Both the position numbers and the translations under genes were made by a program. A DNA stretch of 64,000 nt from an uncultured archaeon (GTDB lineage Archaea; Iainarchaeota; Iainarchaeia; Iainarchaeales; DTGL01): contig CAZKED010000001.1 in NCBI GenBank assembly GCA_964551725.1, positions 42,119 to 106,118 of the forward strand. The letters run 5' to 3'. The notes below the pieces were generated by a model. The model saw only the letters and a program-made list of their open reading frames with translations, had not been told where the DNA came from and ran no database searches. Numbering within the stretch: the stretch's first letter is position 1; each line of letters starts with the position of its first letter. Below, in pieces: positions 17,195 to 39,459 of the stretch.

Positions 17195-18988
17195 ATGCGG
17201 TTAAAGATTGAGAGGGAAAAGTGCGATTTATGCGAGTCAGCGCAGTGCATGAATTCGTGCCCGCTTTTTTTGGAAAAGAATGCGCTGAACTGCATCCACT
17301 GTAACCCGGAAGAAGCGGAGTGCAGGAATGCCTGCAGACGGAATGCCTTTTTTGAAATTGCCGAGGGCATTCTTTCAATCGACGAGGAAAAGTGCGATGG
17401 ATGCGGGGAATGCGTTAAAGCCTGCCCCTACAATGCAATTGTGCTGGTGAACGGAAAGGCGAGGAAGTGCAATCTCTGCGCCGAAAACGATTTCCTTGTT
17501 TCCTGCGCGGAGGGATGCGCGCGCGGGGCAATTTCAATCCGCTGGGAGAGGAAGGAAACCAGGGCAGCGGAAAAGGCATTCGGGTGGAGGGTTTTTCCGG
17601 TCAAGGAAAGGAACATGCGGGTTCTGAGGCATGGAAACAATGCGAGGATTGTCAAGTGCAACGGGAAAAAATGGTACTTGCTGGATTCAATGCCCGCGCT
17701 GACAAAGCAGGAAGCCGTGCTCCTCAGGAAAATACTGCGGGAATTCCAGGAAGGCAAATGGGAAAAGGGAAATCTGGAAGAGGCGGTGGAAAGGCATTGT
17801 TCCACGAATTCGATTGAACTGGGCGAGGAGCAGAAGGACTATTTTCTCGGTGTTCTGGGTTCTTCGGTGTACGGCTTCGGGCCTGTTTCCGTGCTCTTGG
17901 AGGACGAGGAACTCGAGGAGATTGCTCTCGCTGGATTGGGAAAATCGAATCCGTTGAGGGCATTCCACCGCGATTTCGGGTGGCTTGACTGCAATGCATA
18001 CTTTTCAAGCGGCAAAGCCGTGAGGAACCTGGTAAATAAAATGATTGGAAAGATGGAGAGACGGCTTTCCACTGCAAACCCGAGGGTGAACGGAATGCTC
18101 TCCGACGGAAGCAGGCTGAATGCAACACTGCCGCCTGTTTCGGTGGGAATGCCTTCTTTTACTATAAGAAAGTTCCACACTCAAAAAATGACTCCACTGG
18201 AGCTTGTGGGCAACAAAACATTCAGCGCGGAATTAATGGCTTTCCTTTGGCTTTCAATGCTCAGCGAGTGCTCCGTTCTCATAGCGGGAAACACGGGAAG
18301 CGGCAAAACAACCACGCTCAATGCCCTGTTTTCTTTTGTTCCAAGGGATGAAAGGATTGTCGTGGTGGAGGAAACCCCTGAAATGCATTTCCCGCACGCG
18401 CACTGCGTGAGGCTTAACACTCTCGAAAGCAGGAACATTAAAATGCAGGACCTCATCGCGGATTCGCTGAGAATGCGCCCGGACAGGATAGTAATAGGCG
18501 AGGTAAGGGAAAGGGGGGAAATAAAGGCGTTCGTTGACACGCTGCTGGCAGGGCAGGGAAAGGGCAGCTATGCGACAATGCACGCCCTGAGCGCAAGGGA
18601 AGCAGTTACAAGAATGAAGGCTTTCGGGGCAAGGGACGATGATTTGAAGGGAGTGGACCTTTTCATCGTGCAGAAAAGGTGGACTGAAACAGACCTGGAA
18701 AGGAACGAGCGGAGGGAAAAGAGGAGAATCACCGAAGTGGCTGAACTCGGGGAAAAAGGCAGGGCAAAGCGCCTTTTTTCACTTGACTTCCGAAGGGACA
18801 GAATAAAGAGGCATTCTTTTGGAAAAAAGCCCGTGGAAAAAATGAAAATCGCCTTCGGGCTTTCAAAGGGGGAAATAGAGGGGAAAATAAAGAAAAGGAC
18901 GCTTGCACTGGAGGAATGGAAATCCGAGAGACTTTGCCTTAAAGAGTTCTTTGAGAGGGCGTGTGCTTTCAGGGAGGATGGAAAATGA
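17195..18988 (+). CDS. FlaI/TadA/VirB11-family secretion ATPase with an N-terminal poly-ferredoxin-like (4x Cys-cluster) domain
   Basis: The N-terminal 110 aa carry CDLCESAQCMNSCP, CIHCNPEEAECRNAC, CDGCGECVKACP (CxxCxxCxxxCP) and CNLCAENDFLVSCAEGC. The ATPase core carries FTIRKF, Walker A LIAGNTGSGKTTTLNAL, Walker B RIVVVEETPE, and His-box RPDRIVIGEVRERGEIKAFVDTLLAGQGKGSYATMHA. Confidence 0.85.
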   Translation: MRLKIEREKCDLCESAQCMNSCPLFLEKNALNCIHCNPEEAECRNACRRNAFFEIAEGILSIDEEKCDGCGECVKACPYNAIVLVNGKARKCNLCAENDFLVSCAEGCARGAISIRWERKETRAAEKAFGWRVFPVKERNMRVLRHGNNARIVKCNGKKWYLLDSMPALTKQEAVLLRKILREFQEGKWEKGNLEEAVERHCSTNSIELGEEQKDYFLGVLGSSVYGFGPVSVLLEDEELEEIALAGLGKSNPLRAFHRDFGWLDCNAYFSSGKAVRNLVNKMIGKMERRLSTANPRVNGMLSDGSRLNATLPPVSVGMPSFTIRKFHTQKMTPLELVGNKTFSAELMAFLWLSMLSECSVLIAGNTGSGKTTTLNALFSFVPRDERIVVVEETPEMHFPHAHCVRLNTLESRNIKMQDLIADSLRMRPDRIVIGEVRERGEIKAFVDTLLAGQGKGSYATMHALSAREAVTRMKAFGARDDDLKGVDLFIVQKRWTETDLERNERREKRRITEVAELGEKGRAKRLFSLDFRRDRIKRHSFGKKPVEKMKIAFGLSKGEIEGKIKKRTLALEEWKSERLCLKEFFERACAFREDGK

Positions 18989-19755
18989 TTCATTTTCCTT
19001 TTTCCGCGGGGAAATTTTTCGGGGGGAAAATGGGACTGCTTCGCGCTGTTCTTGCCTCGCTTTTCCTCTGGTTTCTTTTCTCCCTTGTTTTTCCCGGAAT
19101 TGTAGAAGGAATCCTGTTTTTTCTTTTCTCCCTTTCCGGAATCTGCCTGTTCTCATTTTACGCTGCGGGGAGAGCGCGCAGGAGGCATGCCGAGAGAGTG
19201 AATGGAAGCATTCCCTTCTTTCTCCTGGGGCTCAGGGTAAAGCTTTTGCTTGGGAAAAGCATGGAGGAATGCCTCAGGGAACTGGGTGTTAAAGGAAAGG
19301 GCGCTTTTTATTCGGAGCTCGGGAAAACCGTGAGGGAATTCGAATGCCTGGGCGCGAGCGTTGAGGATGCTTTGCTGCATCTCGCGGAGAGGGTTGATTC
19401 CATTCCACTGAAGCGCGCTGTTTCCTGCATAGTGCAGCTGAGCGAGCAGGGCTTCTCTGCCGGGGAACTTAACTCGCTGGGCATACTTGCAAGGGAACTG
19501 CTCGCCGAGGAAAAGGCGAAAATAAGGGAATTCTCTGGGAAAATCGTTGTTTTTTCCCTTATGTTTGTGGCTGTTTCCGCTGTTTTTCCGGCACTGTTTC
19601 TCGCGTTTGTTGCCGTGGGCTCTCTTTTTCTCGAAATAGGGTTGAGCCCGCTGCAGGCGGTCGTTGTTCCTGTCGTGCTCTTTCCGCTCATTGACCTGGG
19701 GGCAATGCTTTTCATTCGGGAAAAAATTCCTCTCATCGAAGCGGGCGGGGCGTGA
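18985..19755 (+). CDS. T2SS-F-domain membrane protein (TadB-like half-platform)
   Basis: Its ATG overlaps the ATPase stop (ATGA), and an AGGGAGGA ribosome-binding site lies upstream. The topology is N-terminal TM helices, a cytoplasmic helical domain (LGASVEDALLHLAERV...GELNSLGILAREL), then two C-terminal TM helices. Confidence 0.6.
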   Translation: MIHFPFSAGKFFGGKMGLLRAVLASLFLWFLFSLVFPGIVEGILFFLFSLSGICLFSFYAAGRARRRHAERVNGSIPFFLLGLRVKLLLGKSMEECLRELGVKGKGAFYSELGKTVREFECLGASVEDALLHLAERVDSIPLKRAVSCIVQLSEQGFSAGELNSLGILARELLAEEKAKIREFSGKIVVFSLMFVAVSAVFPALFLAFVAVGSLFLEIGLSPLQAVVVPVVLFPLIDLGAMLFIREKIPLIEAGGA

Positions 19756-19760
19756 ATTAA

Positions 19761-20765: not shown

Positions 20766-21560
20766 ATGTGTGCAATTGAATTGTTTGCGCGGAGAGGTGT
20801 TTTTTTGGAAGGAAAAGTGGAATTTGTGGAGCACGGAAAGGTTGACTTGAAGGGTTATACTTTAATAGAGGGCTTTCCCGGGCTGGGCTTGGTCGGAACG
20901 ATTGGAGTGAAATACATTGTGGAGAGGCTCAAGTTCAGGTCTGTCGGGCACATTGAGAGCGATTTCTTTGTTCCCATTATAAGGGTGCACGAAGGCCTGC
21001 CTGTGTATCCCTCGCGCATTTACGTTAACAAGCAGAAGAAGCTCGCGGCGCTTGTGTCCGAGCAGATAATTCCGAGGAATATGACGGCGACCATTGCCAG
21101 AAATGTGGTGGAGTGGGCTGCAAAAAAGGGAATAAAAAAGGTAATTTCAATAGAGGGAATTCGGACAAAGGGCGCAAAGAACGGGGCGGAAATGAAGATT
21201 TACGGGATTGCCTGCAACGAGAAATCCAAGGCGGACCTCAAAAAATTCAAGGTTCCGATTGTAGGGGAGGGAATCACCACAGGCGTTACTTCAATGATTT
21301 TGCTTGAAATGTCGAAGCAGGACAAAATCGAAGCGTACTCTCTGCTGGGGAACGTGAAAATCGCGGCAGACTACAAGGCTGCCGCGGAATGCCTCAAAAA
21401 ACTGGACGAAATTTTGGGGAACCAGTTCAAAATAAACGTGCAGCCGCTGCTCAAGGAAGCAAAGGAAACAGAAAAAGCGCTCCTCTCGCACCTGGGAAAA
21501 TTAAAGCAGACCGAAGCCACGGTTAAAAAGTTCGAGAAAGGCGTGCCCATGTACACCTGA
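20766..21560 (+). CDS. PAC2-family (proteasome assembly chaperone-like, COG1938) protein
   Basis: The 264-aa ORF has the N-terminal LIEGFPGLGLVGTIGVKYIVERL motif that I associate with the PAC2 family. The length fits. The TATA-like ctattttaaat sits close to the ATG, so the transcript may be leaderless. Confidence 0.45.
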   Translation: MCAIELFARRGVFLEGKVEFVEHGKVDLKGYTLIEGFPGLGLVGTIGVKYIVERLKFRSVGHIESDFFVPIIRVHEGLPVYPSRIYVNKQKKLAALVSEQIIPRNMTATIARNVVEWAAKKGIKKVISIEGIRTKGAKNGAEMKIYGIACNEKSKADLKKFKVPIVGEGITTGVTSMILLEMSKQDKIEAYSLLGNVKIAADYKAAAECLKKLDEILGNQFKINVQPLLKEAKETEKALLSHLGKLKQTEATVKKFEKGVPMYT

Positions 21561-21576
21561 ATTGCCATTCGCTCAA

Positions 21577-21984: not shown

Positions 21985-21998
21985 TTTACCGCCTTTTT

Positions 21999-24223: not shown

Positions 24224-27200
24224 CTAATTCTTTTTCCTTACAATCAGGATTCTTCTTCTCACCAAAAGCACTGCTCCAATGAGCAGTGAAAGGAAGAAAA
24301 GCAATTCGAGAGCGTTTTCCGGCAGGGAAGGCAGGTTCCAGAGCCCTGGCTGCTGTGGTCCTGTCTGCACGTTGAGAATGTTGTCGCCTGGCTTCGACAC
24401 CACTTCGCCGTCCTTTCCGACCTGCGTGAGCGACCCGCGGCGGAATGCCTCAATCAGGGGTATCAGCTGACCGTTCTCGGAATACCACATTCCTGTTTCG
24501 GGGTCGTACCAGAACGCTCCGTTTCTTCCCTGCGCCATTGTAAGCGTTTCCGGGGGGTAGGTATTGTAGGTTATCGTGGGAATGCCGTTTTCCGCTGAAA
24601 ACTTGAGGTCGTGGTCGTTTCCTTCGGCATCCTCTATGTGAATTCCGTCGGCTGTCTGCTGAATGCTTTCAATGGGCGCCTCGTATACCTCGCCTGTTTC
24701 CTTGTTTATTATTTTAATGAAATCAATGCATTCGTCGCCGACAAGCTTCGAGTAAATAATGAACCTGCGCGTTGGCGTTTCAAATATCTGGAAGGGCCCC
24801 ATCTCCGTAAGGGACTGGTTGAATTGCTCCACTTTCTCTTCCTTGAGGTCGGAGCCCGGAACAGCAATCGCTTCAATTTCCACAGCCGGCTCAGGGCACT
24901 CTGTTTCGGGATTAACTGTTTCAGCGAGGTGCGTTTTCATTCCTGAAACGTCTTCCTGCGAAATTGCCGCCTGGGCATTCCTCTTGAGCCATATTATCAA
25001 TTCGTTGGTGTAGGGCTTGTAGAGAATGAGACCGTTTTCGAATATTATGGACTGCAAGAGCCCGGCTTCCTTTGTGCTGTTGTTGCTCAGCAGGGTGTTC
25101 CTGTCGGAGTAAATTTCCACTCTCGCTGTTGCGCCTTCAACCATTAGTCTCGGAGCGCCCTCGGCAACAATCCTCTGCTTTTCCTCCCACGCTTTTATGG
25201 TGGGATGCGTTGTGGTGACAATGTTCACAACCTTTCCGAAAGCGCTTGTGAGGTTGCCGCTTTCCTTTCCATAGGAAGTGAATTCCAGTCCCGTTTGGTC
25301 CAGAATGCCCTGCCTTATGCAGTCGAGCACTTCCCGGCTTGTTGCTATGAGTTCCGAATCGGTGCCCATTTTGAAAATGAGCTCTTTTTTTGCGGGCAGT
25401 CCCAGCACCGTGAGTCTTTTGGGGAATTCTTCCGCGGGAATGCTGAGGTTTGTGGATTCAAGCGCGGTGACAATGTTGTTGTCTATTAATGTGGTTTTTT
25501 TCCTGACGCCGTTTTCGTCCACGACATAGTAAACCTTTCCTTCGCCGAAATTTATTTCCAAAAACCTGTTGGAATCCGGGTCGCCGACAACCTTTTTCCC
25601 GCTTGATTTGAACGCGCTCGGGTTGGTTTCGCCCTTGAACCAGAAGGAGTAAAGTCTCTCGGATTCAAGAATGCCTGAGGAAAACTGCTCTGTGTCAATG
25701 CGCGCCTGCACGAGGTCATCGCTCTCAGAGCCCTCAATGAAGTTTTTCACGGTTTCATCCAGTTTTTCCGCGGCCTGCGAGGTGTACGTGTTCTCGTCGG
25801 AGCGGAACAATCCCATAAGCGTGTCAAATCCCTGCTGGGTCATTTCCGCAACTTTTTCAGTGGAAAGCTGTGCAGGTGCTTCCGAGCCCTGCTTTTCCTC
25901 TTCCGCGGGAGCGAAAATGTGCACGTAATAGCCCTCGTCAACGTCCACGCAGTCCTGTATCTGCGGGGCGTAATAGAGCTGCTGGAATGCGGTAGCGAAC
26001 ACAGCACTCCAGCCGAAAATCATGTAGGAAAGGGATTCCCCGAAAGCCATCCAGCCCCCGACAGAGGAGGGATTGCATTCCCTTCCAAACAAATTGCAGG
26101 CAGCGTTCATTATCTTGCCAGGCAGGATGTCCTGCACTTTCTGCCTGCACGAATTGCCTGCGCGCATTTCTTGCACGAGGTCTATTTTTCCCTCTTCCGA
26201 GGAACCCTCCTCTGTTCCCGACAAATTCATGTGCCTTGAGAAGGTTATAATCGTGGAGCCCTTCTTCTTTGCCTTTTCTGACACGGTGTCCTCGAGAACA
26301 TAGGAAGTGGTGCCGCGCATTGCGTAAAAGTTGGGCATGAACGCGAGTATGTTTTCCGCTGACAGATTGATGCCGCATTCCTCGCAGTCCGGTTCGGAGT
26401 TGGAGTAGAACGCCAGGTTTTCGACCCTGTCGCGCACCTCCTCGCTCTTGAAACTTTCATACATGTCGTTCAACGGCTTGAAGTTCGCGAACACGTTCCT
26501 TGCCAAAAACTCCCAGGGCAGGTACTGGAGCATTTTATTGAAGAGGTCGCCTTGGTCGCTGCCCTCGTTGGCGAAAAAGTCAATGAAGGCGTCATTGTAA
26601 AGCTCGTGCTCTCCTGTGTACCATTTGACCTCGCGCCATACGTCCGGCAGCATGTAGCCCGAAGCCCAGTCCTGTCCGCCGCCGCGCTTTGCGAACCAGT
26701 ATGCGTTGGTGTAAGCGCTCCATTTCAACCCGCCTTTTAGGGAAAAGTAGTCTTTGAATAGTTGGTTCTGGCGCTGCACCGCCATGTCCAAAATGCTTGT
26801 GAACCTGCGGCCCATGAAGCCGCGGTGCACCATTGTGTCCACGAGTCTTTCGCTGTTTTTTACGGGGTATTCCGCTGTCATTAACTGCAGCCTTCCGTGG
26901 GTAAGTCTTTTTGCGAATTCTTCGGGCGTCAATTCCATTGCTTTTGCCATTTCCGCGCCGTGCCCTGGCTTTGTTCCTGTTAAAGTGTAGCGCAGTTTTG
27001 GCACTGACCAGTCCTTTATGGGCAGGGCTTCCCCGGAATCGATTGCCACGGACCAGTCCGCGTAATGGGAGAAATGCCTTTCGATGTCGGGCATGCTCAC
27101 CTCGCCCCACTGGGGGGAAGTCGGGCTGACCTTGTAAAGGTTCAGGTTTCTGCCTGTTGTCTCGAATGCGCTCATTCCCGCCCAGTCGCCGTCCCTTGCG

Positions 27201-28741
27201 AACTTATGCATTACCTGGTATATGTCGATTGAGTCGTCGGGCAGCCAGTGGTATGCCTGCGTTTCGGGGTTTCTCACAGCGTACTGGAAGAAGTGCAATG
27301 GCTCGAAGCGGGAAACGTATTCAGGCATGTCCATGTGGATTAAGTCCTCGTAGCCCATCAATACTTTTGACATTTTCCTGCCGTAGTCCACCCTTGCAAC
27401 CTTTTCCATTTCAGAGTTGAAGCCGAACCTCCTCACTATGTCGTCATAGCTTCTTCTCGCTTCCCTTACGAATGCGTCGTTGGTTCTCGCAACTCCGCGT
27501 ATGTCCCTCATCATTTTGTACATTGATTCCTGTGTTTTTTTGTCAGTAATCTGGTCAATCCAGCCCTCCTTGCCGAACCATTCCTTTTCGAACTTGCTCC
27601 TGAACGCGCGCGATTGCCCCAGATAACATGCATCCGTCCAGCCGTCGTCAAGTACTTCGGTTAACTCGTATCGCAGTCTTCCCGCTGATTCTGGGTGCTG
27701 TGCCGCCTGCCTCCACACCCTGTGAGCGCGCCATTTCCCGAGCCTCGTGTCGGGTCCGAAAAACTTCATTCTTATTTTGTCCGCGAGAGCCGACTTGCTG
27801 AAGCGCCACGGGAATCTGCCTGGTCTTCCGTACTGCAGGAAGAGCTTTTTGGCGCGGAACCAGAGCGCCGGCGCTGCCAGCGATAGAACCATGTCCCCGG
27901 AGAACCACTTGTTGTACAGCTTGTCGAAGAGGGAATACACTGAAATTACTCCCTGCGAGGTGTTTGTCTGCGATGATGCGCTGAAGTTTTCGGCGAGAAT
28001 GGAATTGGGAATCATTTTCTGGTTTAAGCGCACGTATGCTTCAATATTGGAATCGTTTAAGTCCGAGAGAACGAGGTTGTCCATGAACTGCTGTTGCTGC
28101 TCCTCGGGAATTCCCGTTTCTTCGGCTATGCGTGCGAGGTCTTCCTCGTCCATTTCCTCAATCCTGCTCTTTCCCTCGCTCTTGAGCTTTTCTATGAGCG
28201 GTAGGCTCGTGAAGAAGTCCGCGACCTTGCCTGCTTCCTTGTTGAATGCTGTTCCGGAGTTCCTGTAGTTGAGGCTTTTTTCGGTCAGCGGGCATGTCAG
28301 GTTTTTGTCCTCCAGGTCGTTGCACCTGCCGACTCTCAGCGTGTCATCCAGGACAACGCCGAAGGAATACGCTCCATGAATGTTGTCGTTGAGGAGGTGC
28401 TGTATTTCCGCCACGTCGAATTTTTCATCCGCCACTTCCACCTTTGTCGCGTTTTCCTGGTCCAGGGGGATTACGAGCGTGGAGTTGGGAGATTCCTCCC
28501 TGTCGGGGTTCGGCACAGTACCTGAACCTATCTGGCTCCCGAGCAAGCCGTCCGCCAGAGCGTCCAGAATGCGCTGGGATTCCAGGTCGGACATTCCCTC
28601 AATGCTGCAGGTATAGTTTGCCCTTTCAACCTTTTCGGCTTCTGCGCTGTTGTCCTGCAGTGCGGCTGTGAGGGCTGACGCATGCGTTGTGTTCAGTATG
28701 AGGAAAACCGCAATCCAGAGCAATGCATTCCTGTAATCCAT
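24224..28741 (-). CDS. Large secreted protein (1505 aa) with an N-terminal Sec signal and a C-terminal TM plus RRR anchor. Function unknown.
   Basis: The signal is ALLWIAVFLILNTTHASA|LT. The C-terminus is ...NLPSLPENALELLFFLSLLIGAVLLVRRRILIVRKKN. The central region is rich in W/Y/F and has no motif I can name. Confidence 0.75.
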   Translation of the reverse strand: MDYRNALLWIAVFLILNTTHASALTAALQDNSAEAEKVERANYTCSIEGMSDLESQRILDALADGLLGSQIGSGTVPNPDREESPNSTLVIPLDQENATKVEVADEKFDVAEIQHLLNDNIHGAYSFGVVLDDTLRVGRCNDLEDKNLTCPLTEKSLNYRNSGTAFNKEAGKVADFFTSLPLIEKLKSEGKSRIEEMDEEDLARIAEETGIPEEQQQQFMDNLVLSDLNDSNIEAYVRLNQKMIPNSILAENFSASSQTNTSQGVISVYSLFDKLYNKWFSGDMVLSLAAPALWFRAKKLFLQYGRPGRFPWRFSKSALADKIRMKFFGPDTRLGKWRAHRVWRQAAQHPESAGRLRYELTEVLDDGWTDACYLGQSRAFRSKFEKEWFGKEGWIDQITDKKTQESMYKMMRDIRGVARTNDAFVREARRSYDDIVRRFGFNSEMEKVARVDYGRKMSKVLMGYEDLIHMDMPEYVSRFEPLHFFQYAVRNPETQAYHWLPDDSIDIYQVMHKFARDGDWAGMSAFETTGRNLNLYKVSPTSPQWGEVSMPDIERHFSHYADWSVAIDSGEALPIKDWSVPKLRYTLTGTKPGHGAEMAKAMELTPEEFAKRLTHGRLQLMTAEYPVKNSERLVDTMVHRGFMGRRFTSILDMAVQRQNQLFKDYFSLKGGLKWSAYTNAYWFAKRGGGQDWASGYMLPDVWREVKWYTGEHELYNDAFIDFFANEGSDQGDLFNKMLQYLPWEFLARNVFANFKPLNDMYESFKSEEVRDRVENLAFYSNSEPDCEECGINLSAENILAFMPNFYAMRGTTSYVLEDTVSEKAKKKGSTIITFSRHMNLSGTEEGSSEEGKIDLVQEMRAGNSCRQKVQDILPGKIMNAACNLFGRECNPSSVGGWMAFGESLSYMIFGWSAVFATAFQQLYYAPQIQDCVDVDEGYYVHIFAPAEEEKQGSEAPAQLSTEKVAEMTQQGFDTLMGLFRSDENTYTSQAAEKLDETVKNFIEGSESDDLVQARIDTEQFSSGILESERLYSFWFKGETNPSAFKSSGKKVVGDPDSNRFLEINFGEGKVYYVVDENGVRKKTTLIDNNIVTALESTNLSIPAEEFPKRLTVLGLPAKKELIFKMGTDSELIATSREVLDCIRQGILDQTGLEFTSYGKESGNLTSAFGKVVNIVTTTHPTIKAWEEKQRIVAEGAPRLMVEGATARVEIYSDRNTLLSNNSTKEAGLLQSIIFENGLILYKPYTNELIIWLKRNAQAAISQEDVSGMKTHLAETVNPETECPEPAVEIEAIAVPGSDLKEEKVEQFNQSLTEMGPFQIFETPTRRFIIYSKLVGDECIDFIKIINKETGEVYEAPIESIQQTADGIHIEDAEGNDHDLKFSAENGIPTITYNTYPPETLTMAQGRNGAFWYDPETGMWYSENGQLIPLIEAFRRGSLTQVGKDGEVVSKPGDNILNVQTGPQQPGLWNLPSLPENALELLFFLSLLIGAVLLVRRRILIVRKKN

Positions 28742-28745: not shown

Positions 28746-29285
28746 TCACCCGTGATAGAGGTAGAAAATCAACCCCATTGGAATCCAGTTGAACGCGAAC
28801 AGCAACAGAAAGCTGCCTGTTAAAGTGCAGGCAAATACCGCGAGGAAGTTTTTGGCATGCGGGTTCCATTTTTTTTCCTTCAATTTGTCCGCGAGCATCG
28901 AGCCGAGCAGTAAAAACGGGGAGAAGAGAACCGCGACGGCGAATGCAACCATGAGAATTTTGAATACTGCGTAAAACCACAAGCCCGCTGTTTCCAGGGG
29001 CGTGGCATACAGTTGTTCGGGCACTTCGCCCAAATTCCATTCCCCTGAAACAAGCGCGAGAGGGTAAACGTATGCAAGCGCGGTGAGCGCGAGGGAGAAA
29101 ACGAAAAGCGAAATGAACGCTGAAGAGAACCATTTCATTTTGAATTTTTCCGCGAGCCTTTTGCGCAGGAAAGCCGCGGGAAAGACGAGAATGAAAAACG
29201 GGATGGAAAGGACCAGCGAACCCCAGAGCAGCTGCGCAAGGGAAAGTAATAAATTCATGCCAGTGTTAATACTTATGAAGAACAT
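28746..29285 (-). CDS. Polytopic membrane protein (about 5 TM), co-oriented with and 4 nt upstream of the 1505-aa gene
   Basis: The ATG is at 29285 (MFFISINTGMNLL...). A TATA-like gtatatatta lies about 20 nt upstream. Hydrophobic helices run throughout. There is no second-Asp GxGD-type peptidase signature. Confidence 0.55.
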   Translation of the reverse strand: MFFISINTGMNLLLSLAQLLWGSLVLSIPFFILVFPAAFLRKRLAEKFKMKWFSSAFISLFVFSLALTALAYVYPLALVSGEWNLGEVPEQLYATPLETAGLWFYAVFKILMVAFAVAVLFSPFLLLGSMLADKLKEKKWNPHAKNFLAVFACTLTGSFLLLFAFNWIPMGLIFYLYHG

Positions 29286-29362
29286 TCGGCTCAATTAAAT
29301 GTATATATTAACACATTTAAATAACTTAAGGTATTAATTTAGGGGAAGAATTGAGTGGTTTT
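29286..29362. promoter_or_regulatory. Bidirectional AT-rich promoter region (aaatgtatatattaac / catttaaataac / ggtattaattta)
   Basis: The TATA-like elements were read directly between the divergent genes. Confidence 0.35.
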
Positions 29363-30050: not shown

Positions 30051-30821
30051 TTAAGGTGCAGCGGAACAGTTGAGGTATTCCTCTGATGTCAATTTACTGC
30101 CGTCAGGAGCCTGGGGCAAGGGCTTTGCGGGCCAGAACAAAAGGTCAACATATGCTTGGAAGTTGTGCTGCGTGAATTCTTCCGGTCCTTCCTCTTTGAG
30201 CTTTCTGAAGTTCACCAGAACGCTCGGGGGCTTGTTTATTTCGCCGACTTTAAGGAATAGAAGGCGGTCCAGGTCGTTGTCCGTCTTGATTTCCCCGCTT
30301 TGCTTGGGAAAGCAGTAATAGGTTTTTCTTTCCCCGGAAAATTCGTGCTCGCCTGTCTGCGTGTACTCGGCTGTGTAAAGCAGCACGAAAACGAAGGCAT
30401 TCTTCTCGTCGGCGGGAATCCAGTCCTCGTTGTCGAACTGCTGCGGCGGGATGTAAATGTAAAAGAAGTAATCGTATGCCTGCTTCAGGGGATCCATTAC
30501 CGTGCCCACTGAATCCCTGAGCCTGTCCTGCAGTCCCCCGCTCAAAGCGGAGTCGCTCGCGTAATCCTCCTTTATCATGGCAAGGAGGTAGTCGACTTCG
30601 CTTGTGTCCTCTATATTCTCGCCTGGAACTCTCGGAACGCTGGAGTAAAGAATGGTTTGAAGCGCGGAAGCGGCGTAGTCAGCACCGTAAAGGCTTTCGA
30701 GGTTCTTGTTGACGTTTATGCCGAAAGTGCCGCTTATTGAAAACATGAATGCTGAAAGCCCTGCAACAATGAGCAATAGGAACAATGCGTCTGTTATCGC
30801 CGCCTGCCCCCTGCAGTTCAT
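30051..30821 (-). CDS. Type IV pilin-like protein with a class-III signal peptide (MNCRG|QAAITDALFLLLIVAGLSAFMF)
   Basis: The internal ATG at 30821 is preceded by GGGGGA. A basic residue plus Gly is followed by a hydrophobic stretch of more than 20 aa. This is the last gene of the pilin array. Confidence 0.55.
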   Translation of the reverse strand: MNCRGQAAITDALFLLLIVAGLSAFMFSISGTFGINVNKNLESLYGADYAASALQTILYSSVPRVPGENIEDTSEVDYLLAMIKEDYASDSALSGGLQDRLRDSVGTVMDPLKQAYDYFFYIYIPPQQFDNEDWIPADEKNAFVFVLLYTAEYTQTGEHEFSGERKTYYCFPKQSGEIKTDNDLDRLLFLKVGEINKPPSVLVNFRKLKEEGPEEFTQHNFQAYVDLLFWPAKPLPQAPDGSKLTSEEYLNCSAAP

Positions 30822-30868: not shown

Positions 30869-31366
30869 TCAGTCCCACAGCACCACCACCAAAAGCAGGG
30901 GTCTTATGGCAAACCCGCTTCTGACGCTTGAGTCCTGGAAAGCGAAGGGAAACTTTTTCACCATAACTTCTGTGTCGTGGCTTATTTCCCTCTCCATATT
31001 GGAGCATTCCAGGAGTTCGCCGTCTATTTCGAAAATGCCCTCGTCCTCGTTCACGAATTCCATGACGTCAAAGGTCTGCTCCAGGGGTAGTTTTACTGCC
31101 CCGACCTTGTAGTAAACGCTTATGACCTCGCTTATGCCGCCGCACAATTCGAAGAATTCGTCCGGCGTATCCATGTAGCGGTCGCCGCGCAGCCTGTCGC
31201 TTATTTCAAGGAGGCTTATCGCGTTGCTGAACTCGCGCTGCCCGCTGTCAAGTCTCTGGAAAGTTGTCGTGAATGTTGCGAAAAAAATTACAAGAGCGAA
31301 AAGTATGGGAATGAGGCTCGGCAGGTCGTCTCCTATCGGTCCAATGAATCCTTTCCTGCTTTTCAT
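30869..31366 (-). CDS. Pilin-array protein with leader MKSRKG followed by FIGPIGDDLPSLIPILFALVIFFATF. Possible atypical class-III signal.
   Basis: The ATG at 31366 is preceded by GGAGAGAAGG. A KG motif precedes the hydrophobic segment, but Asp-Asp intervenes, so the assignment is tentative. Confidence 0.4.
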   Translation of the reverse strand: MKSRKGFIGPIGDDLPSLIPILFALVIFFATFTTTFQRLDSGQREFSNAISLLEISDRLRGDRYMDTPDEFFELCGGISEVISVYYKVGAVKLPLEQTFDVMEFVNEDEGIFEIDGELLECSNMEREISHDTEVMVKKFPFAFQDSSVRSGFAIRPLLLVVVLWD

Positions 31367-31404: not shown

Positions 31405-32028
31405 TCAGGTTTCGGATAAAATGCAAGTGCTCGGCATGCCTCTTTCCGCTTTGACCATGTTTCCCACTGTTTGCTCGTTGTCGAGGCACGACCCCTCATA
31501 GTGGGAAGTGCACGGAATCAGGTAAAGCTTTTTTTCGCCGTGGTAGATTTCTTTTATTATTATGAGGCTGTCCATTACGGGCTCCCTTGACTGGGGGTCA
31601 AGCGTGGTTTTATCCGCATCTTCAAGGGAATTGGTCACCCTGTCAAAATCGAAAATCAAGAATTCCGCATCGGAATCGATTCTCTGGGAAGCCATCACCG
31701 GCTTTTTTTCACCGCGCGCCGGCCTCCTCGTTACTTCAACGACAAGCGTTGATTCTTCCGCGGACTCTATTTTTCGCAGGTTCATTATGTAATAAACCTG
31801 CCCTGCGTAAAGGCTTCTTATGTAGGGCTGCAGAGAGATCTCCCTTTTAATGCACAACTGGTCGCTTTCAAGCACTTCGACCATTGTCCTGCCGTTCTTC
31901 CTCACTATCCTGCTTGCCTCGCTTCCTATTGAAATCCCGTCCAGGTTATAGGTGAAAAAAATTACTATCGCAAAAAGCGCTGTTACGAGAATGAGGAGGT
32001 TGAGCTTGCTCAGGGCAAAGCCGATCAT
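31405..32028 (-). CDS. Pilin-array protein with an N-terminal hydrophobic anchor (MIGFALSKLNLLILVTALFAIVIFF)
   Basis: Its ATG overlaps the upstream stop (TGATG). There is no K/R-G site, so it could be a very short-leader pilin (MIG|F...) or simply a membrane-anchored accessory protein. Confidence 0.4.
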   Translation of the reverse strand: MIGFALSKLNLLILVTALFAIVIFFTYNLDGISIGSEASRIVRKNGRTMVEVLESDQLCIKREISLQPYIRSLYAGQVYYIMNLRKIESAEESTLVVEVTRRPARGEKKPVMASQRIDSDAEFLIFDFDRVTNSLEDADKTTLDPQSREPVMDSLIIIKEIYHGEKKLYLIPCTSHYEGSCLDNEQTVGNMVKAERGMPSTCILSET

Positions 32029-32585
32029 CAGAGTCCCTTCCTGTAAGCGCATATCACGGGAAAAGCGTGGTTCGGCGGCGTTACATTGAACAGTTCATAG
32101 CTGCCTGCCGGAATTCCCTCGAAGAAATCGTGCAATACGTATTTCGGGTCGTCCGCAGAGCGGTCCGTGCATTCTCCCGGGGAAGACTGCCCCTTGAAAT
32201 TGGTGACCAAAGGAATGTTAACGCACACCTTTCTAGCATAGCCCTGGCTGTAGTATTCCAGCGCAACGCATGAATCCCCGCCCTCACCGCAGAGCGTCGA
32301 GCACAGGCGCTTGTCGCTGTGCGCTTTCAGCTGCACTTCCGCATCCTCAAAACAGCCCGAAGGAATGCTGAACTTGAACCTCGTGGGGAAGCCGTCCCTC
32401 GTGGTTATCTGTATGTGGGATTTCAGGTCCTGGAGCGCGCTTTCAATCTCGCCCTTGCACCTCTCCTCTTGGAACACTTCTATTGCCTTATAGCCGACAA
32501 TGAGCACGAAGCCCATTACTATTATTGCCACGAGCAGTTCAAAGGGCGCCGATTCCTGCCCTTTTCTTCCCAAAAAGCCAGCCAT
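32028..32585 (-). CDS. Type IV pilin-like protein (class-III signal MAGFLGRKG|QESAPFELLVAIIVMGFVLIVG)
   Basis: This is the canonical archaeal pilin N-terminus. The track ORF extends to a GTG at 32723, and the true start is uncertain. A TATA-like tttaaatatt lies near 32795. Confidence 0.6.
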   Translation of the reverse strand: MAGFLGRKGQESAPFELLVAIIVMGFVLIVGYKAIEVFQEERCKGEIESALQDLKSHIQITTRDGFPTRFKFSIPSGCFEDAEVQLKAHSDKRLCSTLCGEGGDSCVALEYYSQGYARKVCVNIPLVTNFKGQSSPGECTDRSADDPKYVLHDFFEGIPAGSYELFNVTPPNHAFPVICAYRKGL

Positions 32586-34064: not shown

Positions 34065-34100
34065 CCACATTCACCTCTGAATTCAGCGCATAAGCACAGC

Positions 34101-34114
34101 GCAAAACGTTTTGC
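34101..34114. promoter_or_regulatory. Perfect 14-bp palindrome GCAAAACGTTTTGC upstream of the pilin gene. Candidate operator.
   Basis: Read directly. The flanking roughly 50 bp (tgccag(g)aagaata(a)gga..tt(c)(t)cctatttaat(g/t)gtttc) are also conserved with the copy near 33400-33460. Confidence 0.4.
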
Positions 34115-34187
34115 CAGGAAGAATAAGGAAATTCACCTATTTAATTGTTTCTTTTTTGCGCGGCGCTTCCTGGGCGCTTCCGATTCG

Positions 34188-34640: not shown

Positions 34641-37190
34641 TCAGAATCCTCCTCCGAAAGAACTCACAACAATATTGGTTACAAAGAAGGAAACAGTGAA
34701 AACAATCATTGAAATGGGCACGTACTTTGCGAGGTTGACTTTAACTAACAGGTTGTTGTCCTCCTCTATTTTCGTGGTGTAATAAATCACAATCACCGCT
34801 ATTTCGACGATGTAAACAAGCATTATCGCAAGGAACATGGGCGCGGAAACCATTGAAAGAAGCGCCTCGGGGTTAATCAACTGCTCGAAGGTTGTAACGT
34901 TGAACGTGCCGAGCCCCGCGCCGGCTGCCGCTTCGCTACTCTCGAAAAGGTCGTCCCCTGCAAAGGAGGCGAACAGCCGCACGATTACCTTGAACAATGA
35001 AGTGGTGATTCCGAGCACTACCGGTGCAATGAAAACAATCATTGTGCGCATTAACTGGGAGATGTCCATCACGAGGTTCTTCAGCATTTTTGAAACCTTT
35101 TCAGAATTCTCAAGCTGCAGGGACATTGAAACAAGGGTTCTGGCGGCAACATTCACTCCGAGTTTTACCGAGTCAACGAGCACTTTCATTCCCACTTTTA
35201 TTGTTTTTGACGGAATGTTCACCAGCGCGCCGTAGCGCGGGTCGAAAACCGCGGACTCCAATGGCATGCCCATCAGGTGGATGTTGTCGAGTGCTCTCCC
35301 AAAAATTCTGTCGGAGATTTTGTAGTTGGGTAGGAATTCCTTCACGTGCCTCAGCGCTTCCTCCATTGGCTTGTTTTCCCCCAAGCGCGAGGCGATAATG
35401 TACAGTGAGTCCTTGAATTCGGATTCGAGCTGCATTATTTCAACCTGCACCTTGCGCCTGTAAATGTTGGAGTAGTATACGAAAAAGTAAATGCATACTG
35501 CTGTGGTCAGCATCAGCCCGAAGATTAAATTGTTGGGCGTGGTGTCGTTTTCCTTCTGCATGAAGAAAACGGTTTTCCTGTAATAAAGGGCTTTTTCTGC
35601 CGCAATTCTTGCAAGCTCTGATTTGAGTCTCGCGGTCGACCAGCCGGGGTTCTGCTGCTCAAGTGCTTTTGCGTAATCCTCGCCCACGTATTTTCTCAGT
35701 TCCGAGAGCTCGGTGGCGTTGGAGGAGTACTCCCTGAAAAATTCGTTGTAGACATCCCCGCCTTCAGTGCTTCCGGCGGGCGGCAGTGCAAAGTAGTCCT
35801 CGTTGTAACCGCCTTCTCGGAGCACGTCGGCTTCCCGCCTGTCCGCGGGAAGCAATTGCTCGTCGGGAAGCAGCGGTTCGTTCCTTCCTTCAATCCCGTA
35901 GCCCGTGGACTTCGGGGGAATTCCTTCAACGTGCAGGAACCATGAAACGCTGACTCCGGCAATTAAAATTATTGCAATGGGAATCCATACGCTCATTTCC
36001 CTCCTGCCCAAAACCATTCTCCCCTTTTTGGGCAGTCCCGGATAGTTTTCCGGAATTTCCGGCGGCTCGTAAGTGGGTGGTCTCTGCCTCACCACCTGCA
36101 CTGCAAAAAAGAAGACGCCCAGCGGAATGCCAACATTGTACAAGAGCACCAGCACGACGGGATTTGCGAGAGGCGAACCCGTGACGAACGCGCCTATGGG
36201 AAGCACGATGAATAAGATTATTGGCAGCAGGACGCCGAGGTAGAACAGTATGGCGGAAGGCATTGAAAGGTCGCGGGCGTACTGCTCCATTTTTTCCTTT
36301 ACCGCGGAAAGAAGCCCTTCAGTGGTTTTGTCGAGGAGGGCATACCTCTTTGCTTCGGTGTCCTCGAGCACTGAAGCGCGGATGCGCATTAGTGCGAGCT
36401 TGAATTCCTTGCTGTACTTTCCCCACTTGTAGGCGAGTTCGTCCAGCCCTTCGGAGAGTGTTGGGTAAACGCCGATCTCAACGCTCCAGAGCAATGACCT
36501 GAAATCCGCGGAAATTTTTCCGCGTCCGTGTTCGGCTGCAAACTCAACCGCTTTTTCGAGGTTGGGGGTCAGCTTGAGGGACATTACCATGTACCCAATC
36601 ATTTCCGGAATATAGCCAAGAGCGCGCCTTTGCTCTGTTTTTATAACGCTCACGGGATAGCGCTGCACGAGCCTCGGCAGGAAAAAGACGAGAAGGAACA
36701 CCGGCATGAGTATGTAGATTATCCACATGGGTCCCGCGAGGGAAGAGAGCATTCCCGAAAGAGGAGTGAACCAGACAAGCATTACAAAGGCAAAGCTCAG
36801 CACTAGAGAGAGGAGCATTGTGAATTTGACAGCGGCGGAGAACTCCTCGGGTTTTATGTCCCAGCCGAGGAAATCAACGGCATTCCTGAATTCTTCCGTG
36901 AATTTTGCCCCTTTTCCCAGCGAGGGCATTGTCCTGTAAGCGCGCTTGCAGAAGCGAACGAAGCGGGGCTCTTTCTTCTTGAAGAGCTTTTTTTCCCCTT
37001 TTTCGAATTCCTCCGAGCTGAACTCTATTTCCTTGTAAAGCCTGCCCGGGGAAACCCTTCTCTTCGGCTTGGGTCTGGTGTGCAAAGGTCTTGCCTCGCG
37101 CCTGCTTTCCCTTTCAGGCGCTTTGTCAATCTTCCTGCGCCTTTCGTACCTTCGAGGCATTAAAAATTCCTCACTTGGAAAACCGGCCAA
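34641..37190 (-). CDS. FlaJ/TadC-like polytopic platform protein (T2SS-F domains), 849 aa
   Basis: A basic N-terminus is followed by multiple TM helices flanking cytoplasmic helical domains (LEKAVEFAAEHGRGKISADFRSLLWSVEIGV...LSEGLDELAYKW, and later a second similar domain). It overlaps the ATPase gene by 20 nt. Confidence 0.75.
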   Translation of the reverse strand: MAGFPSEEFLMPRRYERRRKIDKAPERESRREARPLHTRPKPKRRVSPGRLYKEIEFSSEEFEKGEKKLFKKKEPRFVRFCKRAYRTMPSLGKGAKFTEEFRNAVDFLGWDIKPEEFSAAVKFTMLLSLVLSFAFVMLVWFTPLSGMLSSLAGPMWIIYILMPVFLLVFFLPRLVQRYPVSVIKTEQRRALGYIPEMIGYMVMSLKLTPNLEKAVEFAAEHGRGKISADFRSLLWSVEIGVYPTLSEGLDELAYKWGKYSKEFKLALMRIRASVLEDTEAKRYALLDKTTEGLLSAVKEKMEQYARDLSMPSAILFYLGVLLPIILFIVLPIGAFVTGSPLANPVVLVLLYNVGIPLGVFFFAVQVVRQRPPTYEPPEIPENYPGLPKKGRMVLGRREMSVWIPIAIILIAGVSVSWFLHVEGIPPKSTGYGIEGRNEPLLPDEQLLPADRREADVLREGGYNEDYFALPPAGSTEGGDVYNEFFREYSSNATELSELRKYVGEDYAKALEQQNPGWSTARLKSELARIAAEKALYYRKTVFFMQKENDTTPNNLIFGLMLTTAVCIYFFVYYSNIYRRKVQVEIMQLESEFKDSLYIIASRLGENKPMEEALRHVKEFLPNYKISDRIFGRALDNIHLMGMPLESAVFDPRYGALVNIPSKTIKVGMKVLVDSVKLGVNVAARTLVSMSLQLENSEKVSKMLKNLVMDISQLMRTMIVFIAPVVLGITTSLFKVIVRLFASFAGDDLFESSEAAAGAGLGTFNVTTFEQLINPEALLSMVSAPMFLAIMLVYIVEIAVIVIYYTTKIEEDNNLLVKVNLAKYVPISMIVFTVSFFVTNIVVSSFGGGF

Positions 37191-39441
37191 CCATTGATTC
37201 CCGCACCCAGTCCTTCCATTCTTTCAGCACTTCCCTGTAGTTGACCTTTCCTTTTTCCTCGATTTCCTTTTCCTTCAAGAGCATTAATTTGTCGTGCGCC
37301 AGCGCGGAGTTTTCCGCTTCAAGAATCTCGGGCAGGGAATGCTCTTCTTTCAGTTTCACCAGGAATTCCTTGGACTCGCCGCGCATTCTAATCTCCTCCC
37401 ACATCTGCTGCATTGAGAGACCGGAAACCCTGCTTATTTTTTCGAAAATGTCCGATTCCTTCAAGTTGTCTTCCAGCAGTTCGAGCCTGTCCTTTTTGGC
37501 ATCATAGCGCATTAAGTCCAGCAACCCGCCTTCTCTTTCCGGGTCCTCAACCCAGTGCTTTTTTATTTCGGTTACTTCAACAACCCTGCGGTGGCTTTTT
37601 AGGGAACCGCCGAACCTTATGGGGCGGGCGGTAACAACAATGTCCGTTGCCTTGAAGGAGGTTGTCGGAACATCCAAGTCATTCACGACGCGGTCCCAGA
37701 CAGCGTAAGCGGAATCGCCGTGAATCGTTCCCATTACAACGTTGCCTGCAGCCCCAATGCGCATTGCCTCGTACAAAGTGCGCGCTTCCGTGGAGCGCAC
37801 TTCACCGAGCACCAGAGCGCTGTCGCCCAGGCGCAGGGCGGTGCGAAGTGCCTCTTCTGGGGCAACCTCTGTCTCGGTTTTTGAGACTCCTATGGGCGAG
37901 CGTGTTTTGAGCCTCTGTATGTTGAAGCCGATTCTCTTCATGTACTCCGCGGGAATTTCAAGCGTGTCCTCCTGGAGTATTATTCTCGAGTTCTTGGGAA
38001 TTTCGAGAATGTTCGCTGCCATCAGCGAGGTCTTGCCCGAGCCCCTGGAACCTGTAACGAGCATTGTTGTCTTGTTGTCGATGAAAAAGGAAATGAGCCC
38101 GGCTGCCATCGGATTCAAAAATTTCACGTCAATAAACTGTGCCAAAGTCCAGGGCGTGACCTTGTGCAGGCGGAAAGCGAATGCGACTCCGTCCGGCGCC
38201 AAAGGCGGCCCTATGGTTGCAATTCTTGTCTCCAGTTCCGGCAAATCGAAGTCGAGCACCGGGTGCGCTTCGTCGAATGGTCTTCCTGACATTGCGCGCA
38301 TTTTTGTTATGAGCGTCTGGGCTTCCTTTTCCGTGTAAAGAATGTTCGTGGAGCACTGCCCGAAATCCGAGTGCACCAAGTAAACCGGATTCTGCCCTAT
38401 TGGTGAATCCAAAAAAACATCCGTGAGCCTGCGGTCGGAGAGAATTATTTCAAGTATTCCGTAGCCCACGGTATAGCGCGCGACGATTTCGCTCAGTTCC
38501 TCCGCCTCTCTCTTCGTGATTTTTATTCCGTTTGTTTTCGCGACATCGAGGATTGTGCTCTGGTAAATGCGTTCGAAGTAATCCCGGGATTTTGCCACGG
38601 TGCTCAGCGACGCCTTTCCGGGAGTGTAGGCTGCAACGATTTCCTTTGTCTTGCTGAGAACGAAATATTTTTCGGGGGAAAGGGTGTATTCGGGCGGATT
38701 GATGAAGTATAGGTTCATTGTTTTGTTTGGGTGGTTGAATATCTGCACTGTGGTGTTCTTTACAGTATATTCGTCCAATAGCTCCAACTCTTCCTCGTCC
38801 TTGAACATTAACATCGAGCCTATGAAAGACGGCTTTATCTGGGCTTCGAAGAACACCCTGTATAAATCCTTTGTGTCCGGTATTTCCTCGAGTTCTGTCA
38901 AAAAGCGCTTTACTTTCTGTATGAGCGCGGTTTTTTCGAATTCGTCTTTCATGTATGCGAGGGTGCGCAGGTAAACCTTGCTTCCCTGCTTGTACTGTTC
39001 GCTGCCTTCCTTGTACCTGGCTTTTTCTTTCTGGAGTTCGAGCACGCAGGTGAAGTAGGCTTTTATGGGATCGTATGCGATGAGGTCGTGCGCTATCGTT
39101 ACCGCCATTTTGTGCCTGGGACCCAAAAACATTTCGTCCGCGCCTGGCTCGCCCAGATTCTTCGACGCCCAGACGGTTTCCGCGTCAAATTTCTGCATCA
39201 GTTCTACTATTTCCTTGAGGAGTGCAGTCTGCGCCTGGTCGTAAACGCGCTCGTAGGCTTCCGCCAGCACTATCAGGTCCGCTTCCATTTCGGACATCGC
39301 TTTTATTACGTGGTAACGGCATGCTTGGTCGTCCGCTATCGAGGTGCCGTAAACGCATTCCCTGCAGTCGAATAGCAGGTGGCGCTTGTTGGCTTCCTCT
39401 TTAACGGTGTAATCCCCTACCTTGAACCCGCCTATTTTCAT
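37171..39441 (-). CDS. FlaI/PilB-like type IV pilus/secretion ATPase with a long N-terminal extension
   Basis: The core carries Walker A LVTGSRGSGKTSLMAANI, Walker B RIILQEDTLEIP and His-box GDSALVLGEVRSTEARTLYEAMRIGAAGNVVMGTIHG. The N-terminal roughly 330 aa carry CRECVYGTSIADDQACRYH. The ATG at 39441 is preceded by AGGTG, and the track GTG is at 39459. Confidence 0.85.
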   Translation of the reverse strand: MKIGGFKVGDYTVKEEANKRHLLFDCRECVYGTSIADDQACRYHVIKAMSEMEADLIVLAEAYERVYDQAQTALLKEIVELMQKFDAETVWASKNLGEPGADEMFLGPRHKMAVTIAHDLIAYDPIKAYFTCVLELQKEKARYKEGSEQYKQGSKVYLRTLAYMKDEFEKTALIQKVKRFLTELEEIPDTKDLYRVFFEAQIKPSFIGSMLMFKDEEELELLDEYTVKNTTVQIFNHPNKTMNLYFINPPEYTLSPEKYFVLSKTKEIVAAYTPGKASLSTVAKSRDYFERIYQSTILDVAKTNGIKITKREAEELSEIVARYTVGYGILEIILSDRRLTDVFLDSPIGQNPVYLVHSDFGQCSTNILYTEKEAQTLITKMRAMSGRPFDEAHPVLDFDLPELETRIATIGPPLAPDGVAFAFRLHKVTPWTLAQFIDVKFLNPMAAGLISFFIDNKTTMLVTGSRGSGKTSLMAANILEIPKNSRIILQEDTLEIPAEYMKRIGFNIQRLKTRSPIGVSKTETEVAPEEALRTALRLGDSALVLGEVRSTEARTLYEAMRIGAAGNVVMGTIHGDSAYAVWDRVVNDLDVPTTSFKATDIVVTARPIRFGGSLKSHRRVVEVTEIKKHWVEDPEREGGLLDLMRYDAKKDRLELLEDNLKESDIFEKISRVSGLSMQQMWEEIRMRGESKEFLVKLKEEHSLPEILEAENSALAHDKLMLLKEKEIEEKGKVNYREVLKEWKDWVRESMVGRFSK

Positions 39442-39459
39442 TTCCGCACCTTTTTGCAC

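Follow-up and report, generated by a model that had tools for sequence, protein, structure and literature searches.

Two type IV filament modules in an archaeal cell-surface locus of Diapherotrites/Iainarchaeota type, one with a split platform and a ferredoxin-like domain on its ATPase

A type IV pilus (T4P) platform encoded in two pieces is already-known biology in Archaea, textbook for Epd-like and for many euryarchaeal pili. Two tadC-like genes occur in archaeal clades 1 (Methanococcus Epd), 2 (many euryarchaeal loci) and 4B (Thermoproteales) (Makarova 2016, PMC4858521). The fission of the platform gene has been placed in an archaeal ancestor of the Epd-like pili and of Tad, the latter being transferred later to Bacteria, and in the alignments of the same study TadC resembles the N-domain and TadB the C-domain (Denise 2019, PMC6668835). 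Nor do all motors stand beside their pilins: haloarchaeal PilB/PilC ATPase/TadC modules without cis pilins use pilins in trans (Makarova 2016, PMC4858521). In Methanococcus, Gln at position +1 is required for processing by EppA, the pilin-specific peptidase, and the mature EpdE is only 6.4 kDa (PMC4390842). Here we analyze a stretch of 64,000 nucleotides of the archaeal contig CAZKED010000001.1 (the window), which holds two distinct type IV filament modules, module A (17195-20702, plus strand) and module B (30051-39441, minus strand). Module A consists of an ATPase with a ferredoxin-like N-terminal domain and of two half-size platform genes, F1 and F2. It is best explained, with a probability of roughly 60%, as an Epd/Tad-like pilus motor that uses pilins in trans and whose ATPase is possibly redox-gated, module B being a second pilus machine.

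The core of the module A ATPase (ATPase A) is that of a secretion-superfamily motor. It matches Pfam T2SSE (E 4e-32), and its Walker A, Asp box, Walker B and His box are intact, the motif residues being invariant in the alignment of its family (the A family). The best sequence matches in the PDB are to afGspE (2OAP, 160 bits), CpaF (136) and FlaI (112), and the AlphaFold2 model (pLDDT 89.8) finds 2OAP, FlaI and CpaF as its best Foldseek matches. Residues 1-117, unremarked in the initial annotation, hold 16 cysteines in four 4Fe-4S ferredoxin motifs starting at residues 10, 33, 67 and 92 (C10-x2-C-x4-C-x3-CP, C33-x2-C-x6-C-x3-C, C67-x2-C-x2-C-x3-CP and C92-x2-C-x8-C-x3-C). Pfam Fer4, Fer4_7 and Fer4_11 match over residues 30-115, a PDB search finds homology of the region to the polyferredoxin MvhB, FwdF, NrfC/PsrB and FdnH, and the region is modeled at pLDDT 83-95. 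Across 16 fused homologues, 15 of the 16 cysteines are invariant, and Cys33 is kept in at least 90%. The four Cx2Cx(2-8)Cx3C motifs are present in the deepest-branching members of the A family (L089, L092 and P0098; L and P numbers are our own handles), whereas no other ATPase of the sample, whether archaeal, bacterial or of the B type, has them. With a profile of the domain and its linker, a search of 1.84 billion representative proteins recovered the N-terminal architecture in a few dozen clusters at 50% identity, in proteins of 545-650 aa; below these fused ATPases came generic ferredoxins only. Searches of the literature for Iainarchaeota pili and for pilus ATPases fused to a ferredoxin yielded nothing specific; as far as the searchable literature goes, no secretion-superfamily ATPase bearing a conserved polyferredoxin-like domain at its N-terminus appears to have been described.

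The domain is predicted to bind up to four [4Fe-4S] clusters, and it probably ties the activity or assembly of the motor to the cellular redox or oxygen state. Several nested members of the A family (L090, P0063, P0081, P0088, P0095 and P0104) lack it; the core motor can thus work without the domain, which favors a regulatory add-on. A purely structural role, as in ABCE1, is by analogy a real alternative. A more specific proposal, that ATPase A is under the direct control of a chain of up to four clusters (24 per hexamer), with either oxygen or the redox state of the ferredoxin pool gating pilus assembly in these anaerobic, ferredoxin-dependent cells, is tentative. In its extreme version, the domain would pass electrons to or from the pilus machinery. 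If true, redox gating would have no described counterpart among the regulatory modes of secretion-superfamily ATPases, and the Fe-S-fused ATPase would tie the assembly of surface filaments to redox state in a concrete way in DPANN archaea, a group in which the biology of host contact is little understood.

The two genes downstream of ATPase A had been assigned in the initial annotation to the T2SSF family, and homology searches agree. F2 matches Pfam T2SSF on its own (36.8 bits, E 4.5e-9, against a cut-off of 25.2 bits), whereas F1 alone is sub-threshold (E 0.005). Homology between the two is nevertheless seen with profiles of nine or ten orthologues (hhalign E 9e-22, probability 99.4). F1 also matches positions 42-242 of the 484-position NCBIfam UpsF profile, within its N-half, and Pfam T2SSF matches in most F1 orthologues; by profile comparison, F1 is a T2SSF protein despite its sub-threshold Pfam score. 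A search of a 5.8-billion-protein index with F1 and F2 concatenated, in which hydrophobic words probably saturated the candidates, returned two matches and was the source of P0242, a fused relative of 567 aa. F1 aligns to residues 99-268 of this protein and F2 to residues 348-484, and hence the pair is collinear with a two-domain platform. The assignment of the halves rests on P0242 and UpsF, not on the module B platform (platform B), the N-domain of which both F1 and F2 prefer in profile comparison. PDB profile searches with F1 and F2 gave marginal GspF matches or none. The start of F1 and the end of the ATPase gene share 4 nt (ATGA), F2 begins 5 nt past the end of F1, and an oligo-T tract and a TATA-like TTAAAAGAATTT box lie upstream of the ATPase gene; because of these features, we infer that the three genes form one transcription unit. 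Module A has what defines a split-platform T4P, namely two contiguous single-T2SSF genes adjoining the ATPase.

A split platform need not be a bacterial one. It had been taken for the bacterial-style arrangement, and module A for a possible horizontal acquisition and a secretion system serving the adjacent giant proteins. In full, this explanation makes module A a horizontally acquired bacterial Tad-type system engaged in T2SS-like (type II secretion system-like) export of the adjacent giant surface proteins, and we consider it very improbable. It is true that the core of ATPase A is about as close to CpaF (~32% identity) as to other archaeal ATPases. Species genomes of the GTDB were scanned with the ATPase alignment, and distant relatives (28-38% identity) were found, among the matches listed, in Hydrothermarchaeota, Methanosarcinales, Woese-, Micr-, Parv- and Iainarchaeota and in many bacterial Tad loci. 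Within the same set, the order ATPase, F1-like, F2-like holds in all 12 archaeal loci, from six lineages, whose downstream sequence is intact, whereas the reverse order of the halves is commonest in bacterial Tad loci (24/44, with small score margins). Module A has the half order of its archaeal relatives, not that of Tad. That the N-half comes first in Archaea and is commonly second in bacterial Tad is also a small independent data point for the fission-and-transfer scenario (Denise 2019, PMC6668835), in which split platforms are archaeal in origin.

The phylogeny of the ATPases points the same way. In a neighbor-joining tree of the fetched relatives (327 columns, 100 bootstraps), the A family (99), bacterial CpaF (100) and the family of the module B ATPase (B family, 100) are each monophyletic. 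The A family is not nested in Bacteria, although the weak grouping of A with the bacterial ATPases (A+Bac, bootstrap 57) is of the kind that the Tad explanation would lead one to expect. The A and B families lie far apart, the latter being ~25% identical to everything else, and the two ATPases of the window are 21% identical. Since the families are separate and monophyletic and the identity so low, a recent paralogy of A and B can be set aside, and so can a recent import of A from Bacteria; the two modules are as distinct as they were first taken to be. The NCBIfam TadA-family model scores ATPase A at 177 against a cut-off of 373, and among the neighbors there is no Pfam or NCBIfam match for a Flp pilin, TadV, the secretin RcpA, TadZ or other Tad accessory genes.

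The closest homologues of ATPase A and platform B come from 'Candidatus Diapherotrites', 'Iainarchaeum' or archaeal metagenome-assembled genomes, and by this token the window is from a DPANN archaeon of the Diapherotrites/Iainarchaeota type. For synteny, we compared eight further Diapherotrites-type contigs (L001, L003, L085, L087, L089, L090, L091 and L092). Their gene order is ATPase-F1-F2-PAC2 (with PAC2 directly downstream in 8 of the 9 genomes), followed by a convergent gene for a protein of ~1450-1690 aa, with orthologues that are 38-51% (ATPase A) and 33-49% (F1 and F2) identical to the window copies. A deviation of the module A genes in G+C content or codon usage was looked for, and there is none: G+C content, G+C at third codon positions and synonymous codon usage are all within the range of the neighbors. 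On this lineage-wide synteny and ordinary composition, and with the A family outside bacterial CpaF, module A belongs to the core of the Diapherotrites/Iainarchaeota lineage and is inherited vertically, not acquired. As to secretion, large surface proteins are often encoded upstream of module A (in the window, L087, L089, L003 and L090), and no pilins are encoded beside it, as a secretion system would have it. However, the neighbors of 3140 and 547 aa bear Sec-type signal peptides and are orthologous in one other genome only, and modules with pilins in trans are known. Single-membrane Archaea have no second barrier needing a T2SS, and a host of this kind would need no T2SS-like second step.

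Pilin genes are absent beside module A in the window, as had been noted, and in the eight related genomes. Small genes downstream of F2 in some relatives (L001, 75 aa; L003, 73 aa; L091, 92 and 112 aa; L092, 87 aa) were considered as Flp-like pilins and rejected, being unrelated basic or multi-transmembrane (TM) proteins. Because in none of the nine genomes is a pilin encoded with the module, we infer that the pilins of module A are supplied in trans, which, by analogy with the haloarchaeal modules, is most likely. In the reading we prefer, ATPase A would be translationally coupled to two half-size platform proteins, and F1 (N-half) and F2 (C-half) would together form the platform that a fused FlaJ/TadC protein forms alone. 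The ATPase hexamer would dock on this platform and power the extrusion of processed pilins from the membrane to build a filament. The substrates would be pilins with class III signal peptides encoded in trans, the nearest candidates being the linked cluster of +1-Gln pilins and especially a 59-aa open reading frame (ORF) within it.

This cluster, 9-14 kb from module A, is the only one seen in the window. Seven pilin-like genes had been listed. In six (p1-p4, p6 and p7), a class III signal peptide is clearly recognizable, its [KR]G preceding a hydrophobic helix and the site being conserved in orthologues from two other genomes; the seventh (p5) is ambiguous, and an eighth, the 59-aa ORF, had been overlooked and was found by a motif scan. 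Gln is at +1 in five of the pilins, and also in the 59-aa ORF ([GA]/Q, the slash preceding +1). Orthologues of the latter, of 54 and 61 aa, are in the same position in two related contigs (L086:13445-13609 and L088:5891-6076), and by size and layout it is a candidate short pilin of the Flp/EpdE-like type.

Two other kinds of genes associated with pili are found near module A in some relatives. KaiC/FlaH-like ATPase genes (PF06745) are at most ~1.5 kb away in L085 (8037-8951) and L091 (13320-14006), recalling the secondary ATPase of Epd and Tad loci; the window has none. In L091 and L092, a prepilin peptidase gene is found upstream of module A, at a distance of 3-5 kb; no such gene (Peptidase_A24/PibD/EppA) is among the window ORFs scanned, the source contig of ~120 kb continuing beyond the window.

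The module B ATPase matches Pfam T2SSE (E 7e-17) and, over residues 278-702, afGspE in the PDB (114 bits), and it has the residues of the Walker A, Asp box, Walker B and His box. Its N-terminal extension of ~280 aa is without detectable domain and is conserved in the orthologues, which are 66-72% identical in L086 and L088. Platform B has two divergent T2SSF domains (~170-365 and ~560-720), ~10 TM helices and an insert of ~170 aa. Platform B itself gave no Pfam match and no PDB sequence match; T2SSF is matched by 23 of the 26 members of its family, and a hidden Markov model finds two T2SSF domains in the L086 and L088 orthologues. Its N-half and C-half each match the F1 profile (E 6.5e-8 and 8e-8). 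By these comparisons, platform B is a fused two-domain T2SSF platform, and the contrast first drawn between a split platform in module A and a fused one in module B stands. The genes of module B are separated by -25 to 130 nt. Judged by its gene content, module B is a self-contained and deeply divergent second pilus machine, with ATPase, fused platform and pilins in one operon.

The proximity of the modules raises the question of whether they serve one pilus. A and B could be alternative or antagonistic motors acting on a single pilus and pilin set, either condition-specific or for extension and retraction, with the Fe-S domain choosing the motor. The linkage of A, pilins and B on one contig in several genomes and the single pilin cluster visible in the window are in keeping with this idea, as is the finding that paralogous ATPase/TadC modules share pilin sets and that a locus may have two ATPases (Makarova 2016, PMC4858521). 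Each ATPase, however, has its own cognate platform, which implies two machines. Archaea are without PilT-type retraction ATPases, and CpaF-type motors can be bifunctional, both of which speak against this idea. Moreover, module A pairs with a second module not of the B type in L092. We thus regard a shared pilus as unlikely.

The deep-branching relative L092 (4158-9564) has an A24/Arc_PepC_II prepilin peptidase gene ahead of module A and, also ahead of it, a third kind of module, made of an 802-aa ATPase and split platform genes of 296 and 409 aa. The 802-aa ATPase falls with Woese-/Micrarchaeota-type ATPases rather than with those of the B type, and module A thus has different partners in different lineages.

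Table 1. Features of the two filament modules and of the genes around them (in pilin motifs, the slash precedes residue +1).
Feature	Coordinates	Strand	Description
Module A ATPase, 597 aa	17195..18988	+	T2SSE/CpaF/afGspE-type core, residues ~130-597; ferredoxin-like domain, residues 1-117
Platform gene F1, 256 aa	18985..19755	+	Single T2SSF domain, N-half type
Platform gene F2, 313 aa	19761..20702	+	Single T2SSF domain, C-half type
PAC2-family gene	20766..21560	+	Pfam PAC2 E 8e-35; directly downstream of module A in 8/9 genomes
1505-aa envelope protein	24224..28741	-	Sec signal peptide, C-terminal TM anchor; no Pfam match
182-aa polytopic membrane protein	28746..29294	-	Five TM; conserved partner of the 1505-aa gene; no Pfam domain
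Pilin p7, 256 aa from internal ATG	30051..30821	-	CRG/QAAITDALF
Pilin p6, 165 aa from internal ATG	30869..31366	-	RKG/FIGPIGDDLPSLIP, conserved in orthologues
Pilin-like p5, 215 aa	31405..32052	-	N-terminal hydrophobic helix; no clear conserved [KR]G site
Pilin p4, 185 aa from internal ATG	32028..32585	-	RKG/QESAPFELL
Short pilin-like ORF, 59 aa	32597..32776	-	EEKA/QGEWSSVY (EEKA/QGEWSSVYFLLVLVIVALVLIAFIKPMF), then 22-aa hydrophobic helix; predicted mature length ~44 aa
Pilin p3, 187 aa	32822..33385	-	EKG/QSFSVFKLLI
Pilin p2, 184 aa	33516..34070	-	ERG/QAFSAFKLLI; paralogue of p3
Pilin p1, 150 aa	34188..34640	-	EKG/Q, then hydrophobic helix; 0-nt gap to platform gene
Module B platform, 839 aa from ATG at 37160	34641..37160	-	849-aa ORF extends to TTG at 37190
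Module B ATPase, 756 aa from ATG at 39441	37171..39441	-	T2SSE core; ORF extends to GTG at 39459

Every ORF of the initial annotation is present at its coordinates (Table 1), and the window holds part of a conserved cell-surface super-locus of ~45 kb. Module B with its pilins is found 16-20 kb from module A on the same contig in two of the related genomes, where, as in the window, genes for an archaeosortase-like protein and for a giant of ~2700 aa lie beyond it. Taken together, module A, its neighbors and module B show synteny among Diapherotrites/Iainarchaeota genomes, with identities of 35-70%. The 1505-aa and 182-aa genes sit between the two modules in nearly all related genomes, homologues of the former being present in L001, L003, L085/L086, L087/L088, L090, L091 and L092. 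S-layer-like components have been described beside archaeal T4P loci (Makarova 2016, PMC4858521), and the 1505-aa protein, with its 182-aa partner, is a candidate for such a component. The PAC2 gene beside module A probably represents conserved synteny rather than a component of the system. It is followed, in the window (20766-22867) and in L087, by archaeal riboflavin genes, two of the DMRL-synthase family and one for a CTP-dependent riboflavin kinase, probably again conserved synteny without functional link.

Beyond module B are three tandem giant ORFs on the plus strand: 40294-48624 (2776 aa), 50620-57831 (2403 aa) and 57897-64000 (at least 2034 aa, running off the window end). They share an N-terminal motif of ~65 aa, '..Y.K.E(D/E).(W/Y)Y...D.L..KGIP.Y...D.L(D/E).(K/R)GIPSFP', followed by a TM helix, which is found also in orthologues from two other genomes (L088:20445 and, on the minus strand, L086:3053). 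The motif may mark a prepilin-like site, unusual in having a very long leader, or else anchor the N-terminus in the membrane. The first giant gene directly follows a gene for a 220-aa polytopic archaeosortase-like protein (39555-40217, plus strand; TIGR04178 E 6e-7, archaeosortase D E 1.5e-5), an arrangement kept in L086 and L088. Possible substrates of the archaeosortase are the 1505-aa protein and a protein of 741 aa (37-2262), the C-terminus of which, 'PTGFFGLG..TM..KK', is like a PGF-CTERM signal. Between the first two giant genes lies that of a 578-aa protein (48621-50357, plus strand) with the N-terminus ..VNERA/FNLFTALLGFVLIILT, a Cys-rich C-terminus and no Pfam match; by these features it could be a large minor pilin or adhesin.

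The abundance of envelope proteins, which dominate the super-locus, brings up another use for module A, as a bindosome-like (Bas-type) or other non-filament system that, instead of building a long pilus, inserts or organizes large envelope proteins with pilin-like N-termini. The lack of cis pilins would fit, and there are candidate substrates in the 578-aa protein, with its class III-like N-terminus, and perhaps in the three giants, with their KG/RG-IP motif ('RGIPSFP' and TM) before the helix. These genes adjoin module B, not A, and the ~45-aa leader that is conserved with the motif of the giants does not resemble those known from prepilins. The partial match of the ATPase to NCBIfam BasE (E 1e-32) amounts to 114 bits against a cut-off of 1000, below the FlaI and TadA scores, and BasABC-like genes were not found. 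We therefore hold this role to be improbable. A bindosome proper was rejected on the BasE score, below the NCBIfam cut-off, and the missing accessory genes. An archaellum was likewise rejected: FlaI scores are 185 and 142 bits against a cut-off of 550, and genes for FlaF, FlaG, FlaH and archaellin are absent from the window.

We return to the reading of module A as an Epd/Tad-like motor with pilins in trans, against which several points weigh. The module A operon is without a pilin, prepilin peptidase or KaiC/FlaH-like gene, which leaves no physical link to a substrate. The pilins sit in the operon of module B, which alone may use them, and the 59-aa ORF fits no pilin family model, having no Pfam match, Flp_Fap included. 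'Epd-like' is a label by architecture, and the tree is one of the fetched relatives. It was built by neighbor-joining only, and the order in it of the A family, bacterial CpaF and the Hydrothermarchaeota-type ATPases is weakly supported, as the A+Bac value indicates. Fe-S binding and redox sensing are predictions from sequence. In ABCE1, the N-terminal Fe-S domain of an ATPase has a mechanical and not a sensory role. The super-locus, comprising two motors, eight pilin-like genes, an S-layer-like protein of about 1500 aa, an archaeosortase-like gene and tandem giants, offers a target for studying the attachment of ultrasmall cells.

In closing, we compare the locus with the systems it resembles most. 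The archaeal Epd-like or split-platform T4P (M. maripaludis Epd; clades 1, 2 and 4B of Makarova) likewise have an ATPase and two contiguous single-T2SSF genes. The class III, +1-Gln pilins and the short candidate major pilin of the window, which lie in the operon of module B, recall theirs, as do a KaiC/FlaH-like ATPase and an A24 peptidase near the module in some of the relatives (L085, L091 and L092). They differ in that the module A ATPase has a 16-Cys ferredoxin domain and its operon no pilins, peptidase or KaiC-like gene. The bacterial Tad/Flp system (T4c) has the same layout of an ATPase followed by two half-size platform genes (CpaF/TadA, TadB and TadC), and the core of ATPase A, at the identity to CpaF given above, has a closely similar fold (Foldseek E 6e-29). 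In Tad, however, the half order tends to be reversed, whereas module A is without secretin, TadZ, TadD-G or Pfam-detectable Flp pilin, its ATPase family is outside the bacterial clade, and its host is a single-membrane archaeon. The PilB3-PilC3 locus of Haloferax volcanii and the OE2215R-type loci of Halobacterium are, like module A, ATPase-platform operons without pilins, and these assemble adhesion pili in trans (Makarova 2016, PMC4858521); they belong to another clade and other organisms, and for module A the trans use is putative.

The ferredoxin domain has likenesses of its own. ABCE1/RLI also has a ferredoxin-type Cys domain (2x[4Fe-4S], N-terminal) on an ATPase and gives a weak PDB match (6tmf_d), but its ATPase is of an unrelated superfamily and its domain is a mechanical lever. 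The four-cluster subunits DmsB, NrfC, PsrB, FdnH and MvhB share the four-motif layout of the Fer4_11 type; they form an electron wire between partner subunits, and such partners are absent here. The arCOG05558 T4P ATPase of Pyrobaculum and Thermoproteus (Makarova 2016, PMC4858521) also has an added N-terminal domain with conserved Cys, although in that case the Cys-rich domain is small, is read as disulfide-forming and belongs to another clade, the comparison being with its description only. Finally, two filament systems in one cell are not peculiar to this archaeon. Saccharibacteria of the candidate phyla radiation, likewise ultrasmall and probably host-associated, have two distinct type IV pili with separate roles (PMC11623550). 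These are bacterial, of the T4a type and shown experimentally, and the analogy extends only to the coexistence of two systems.

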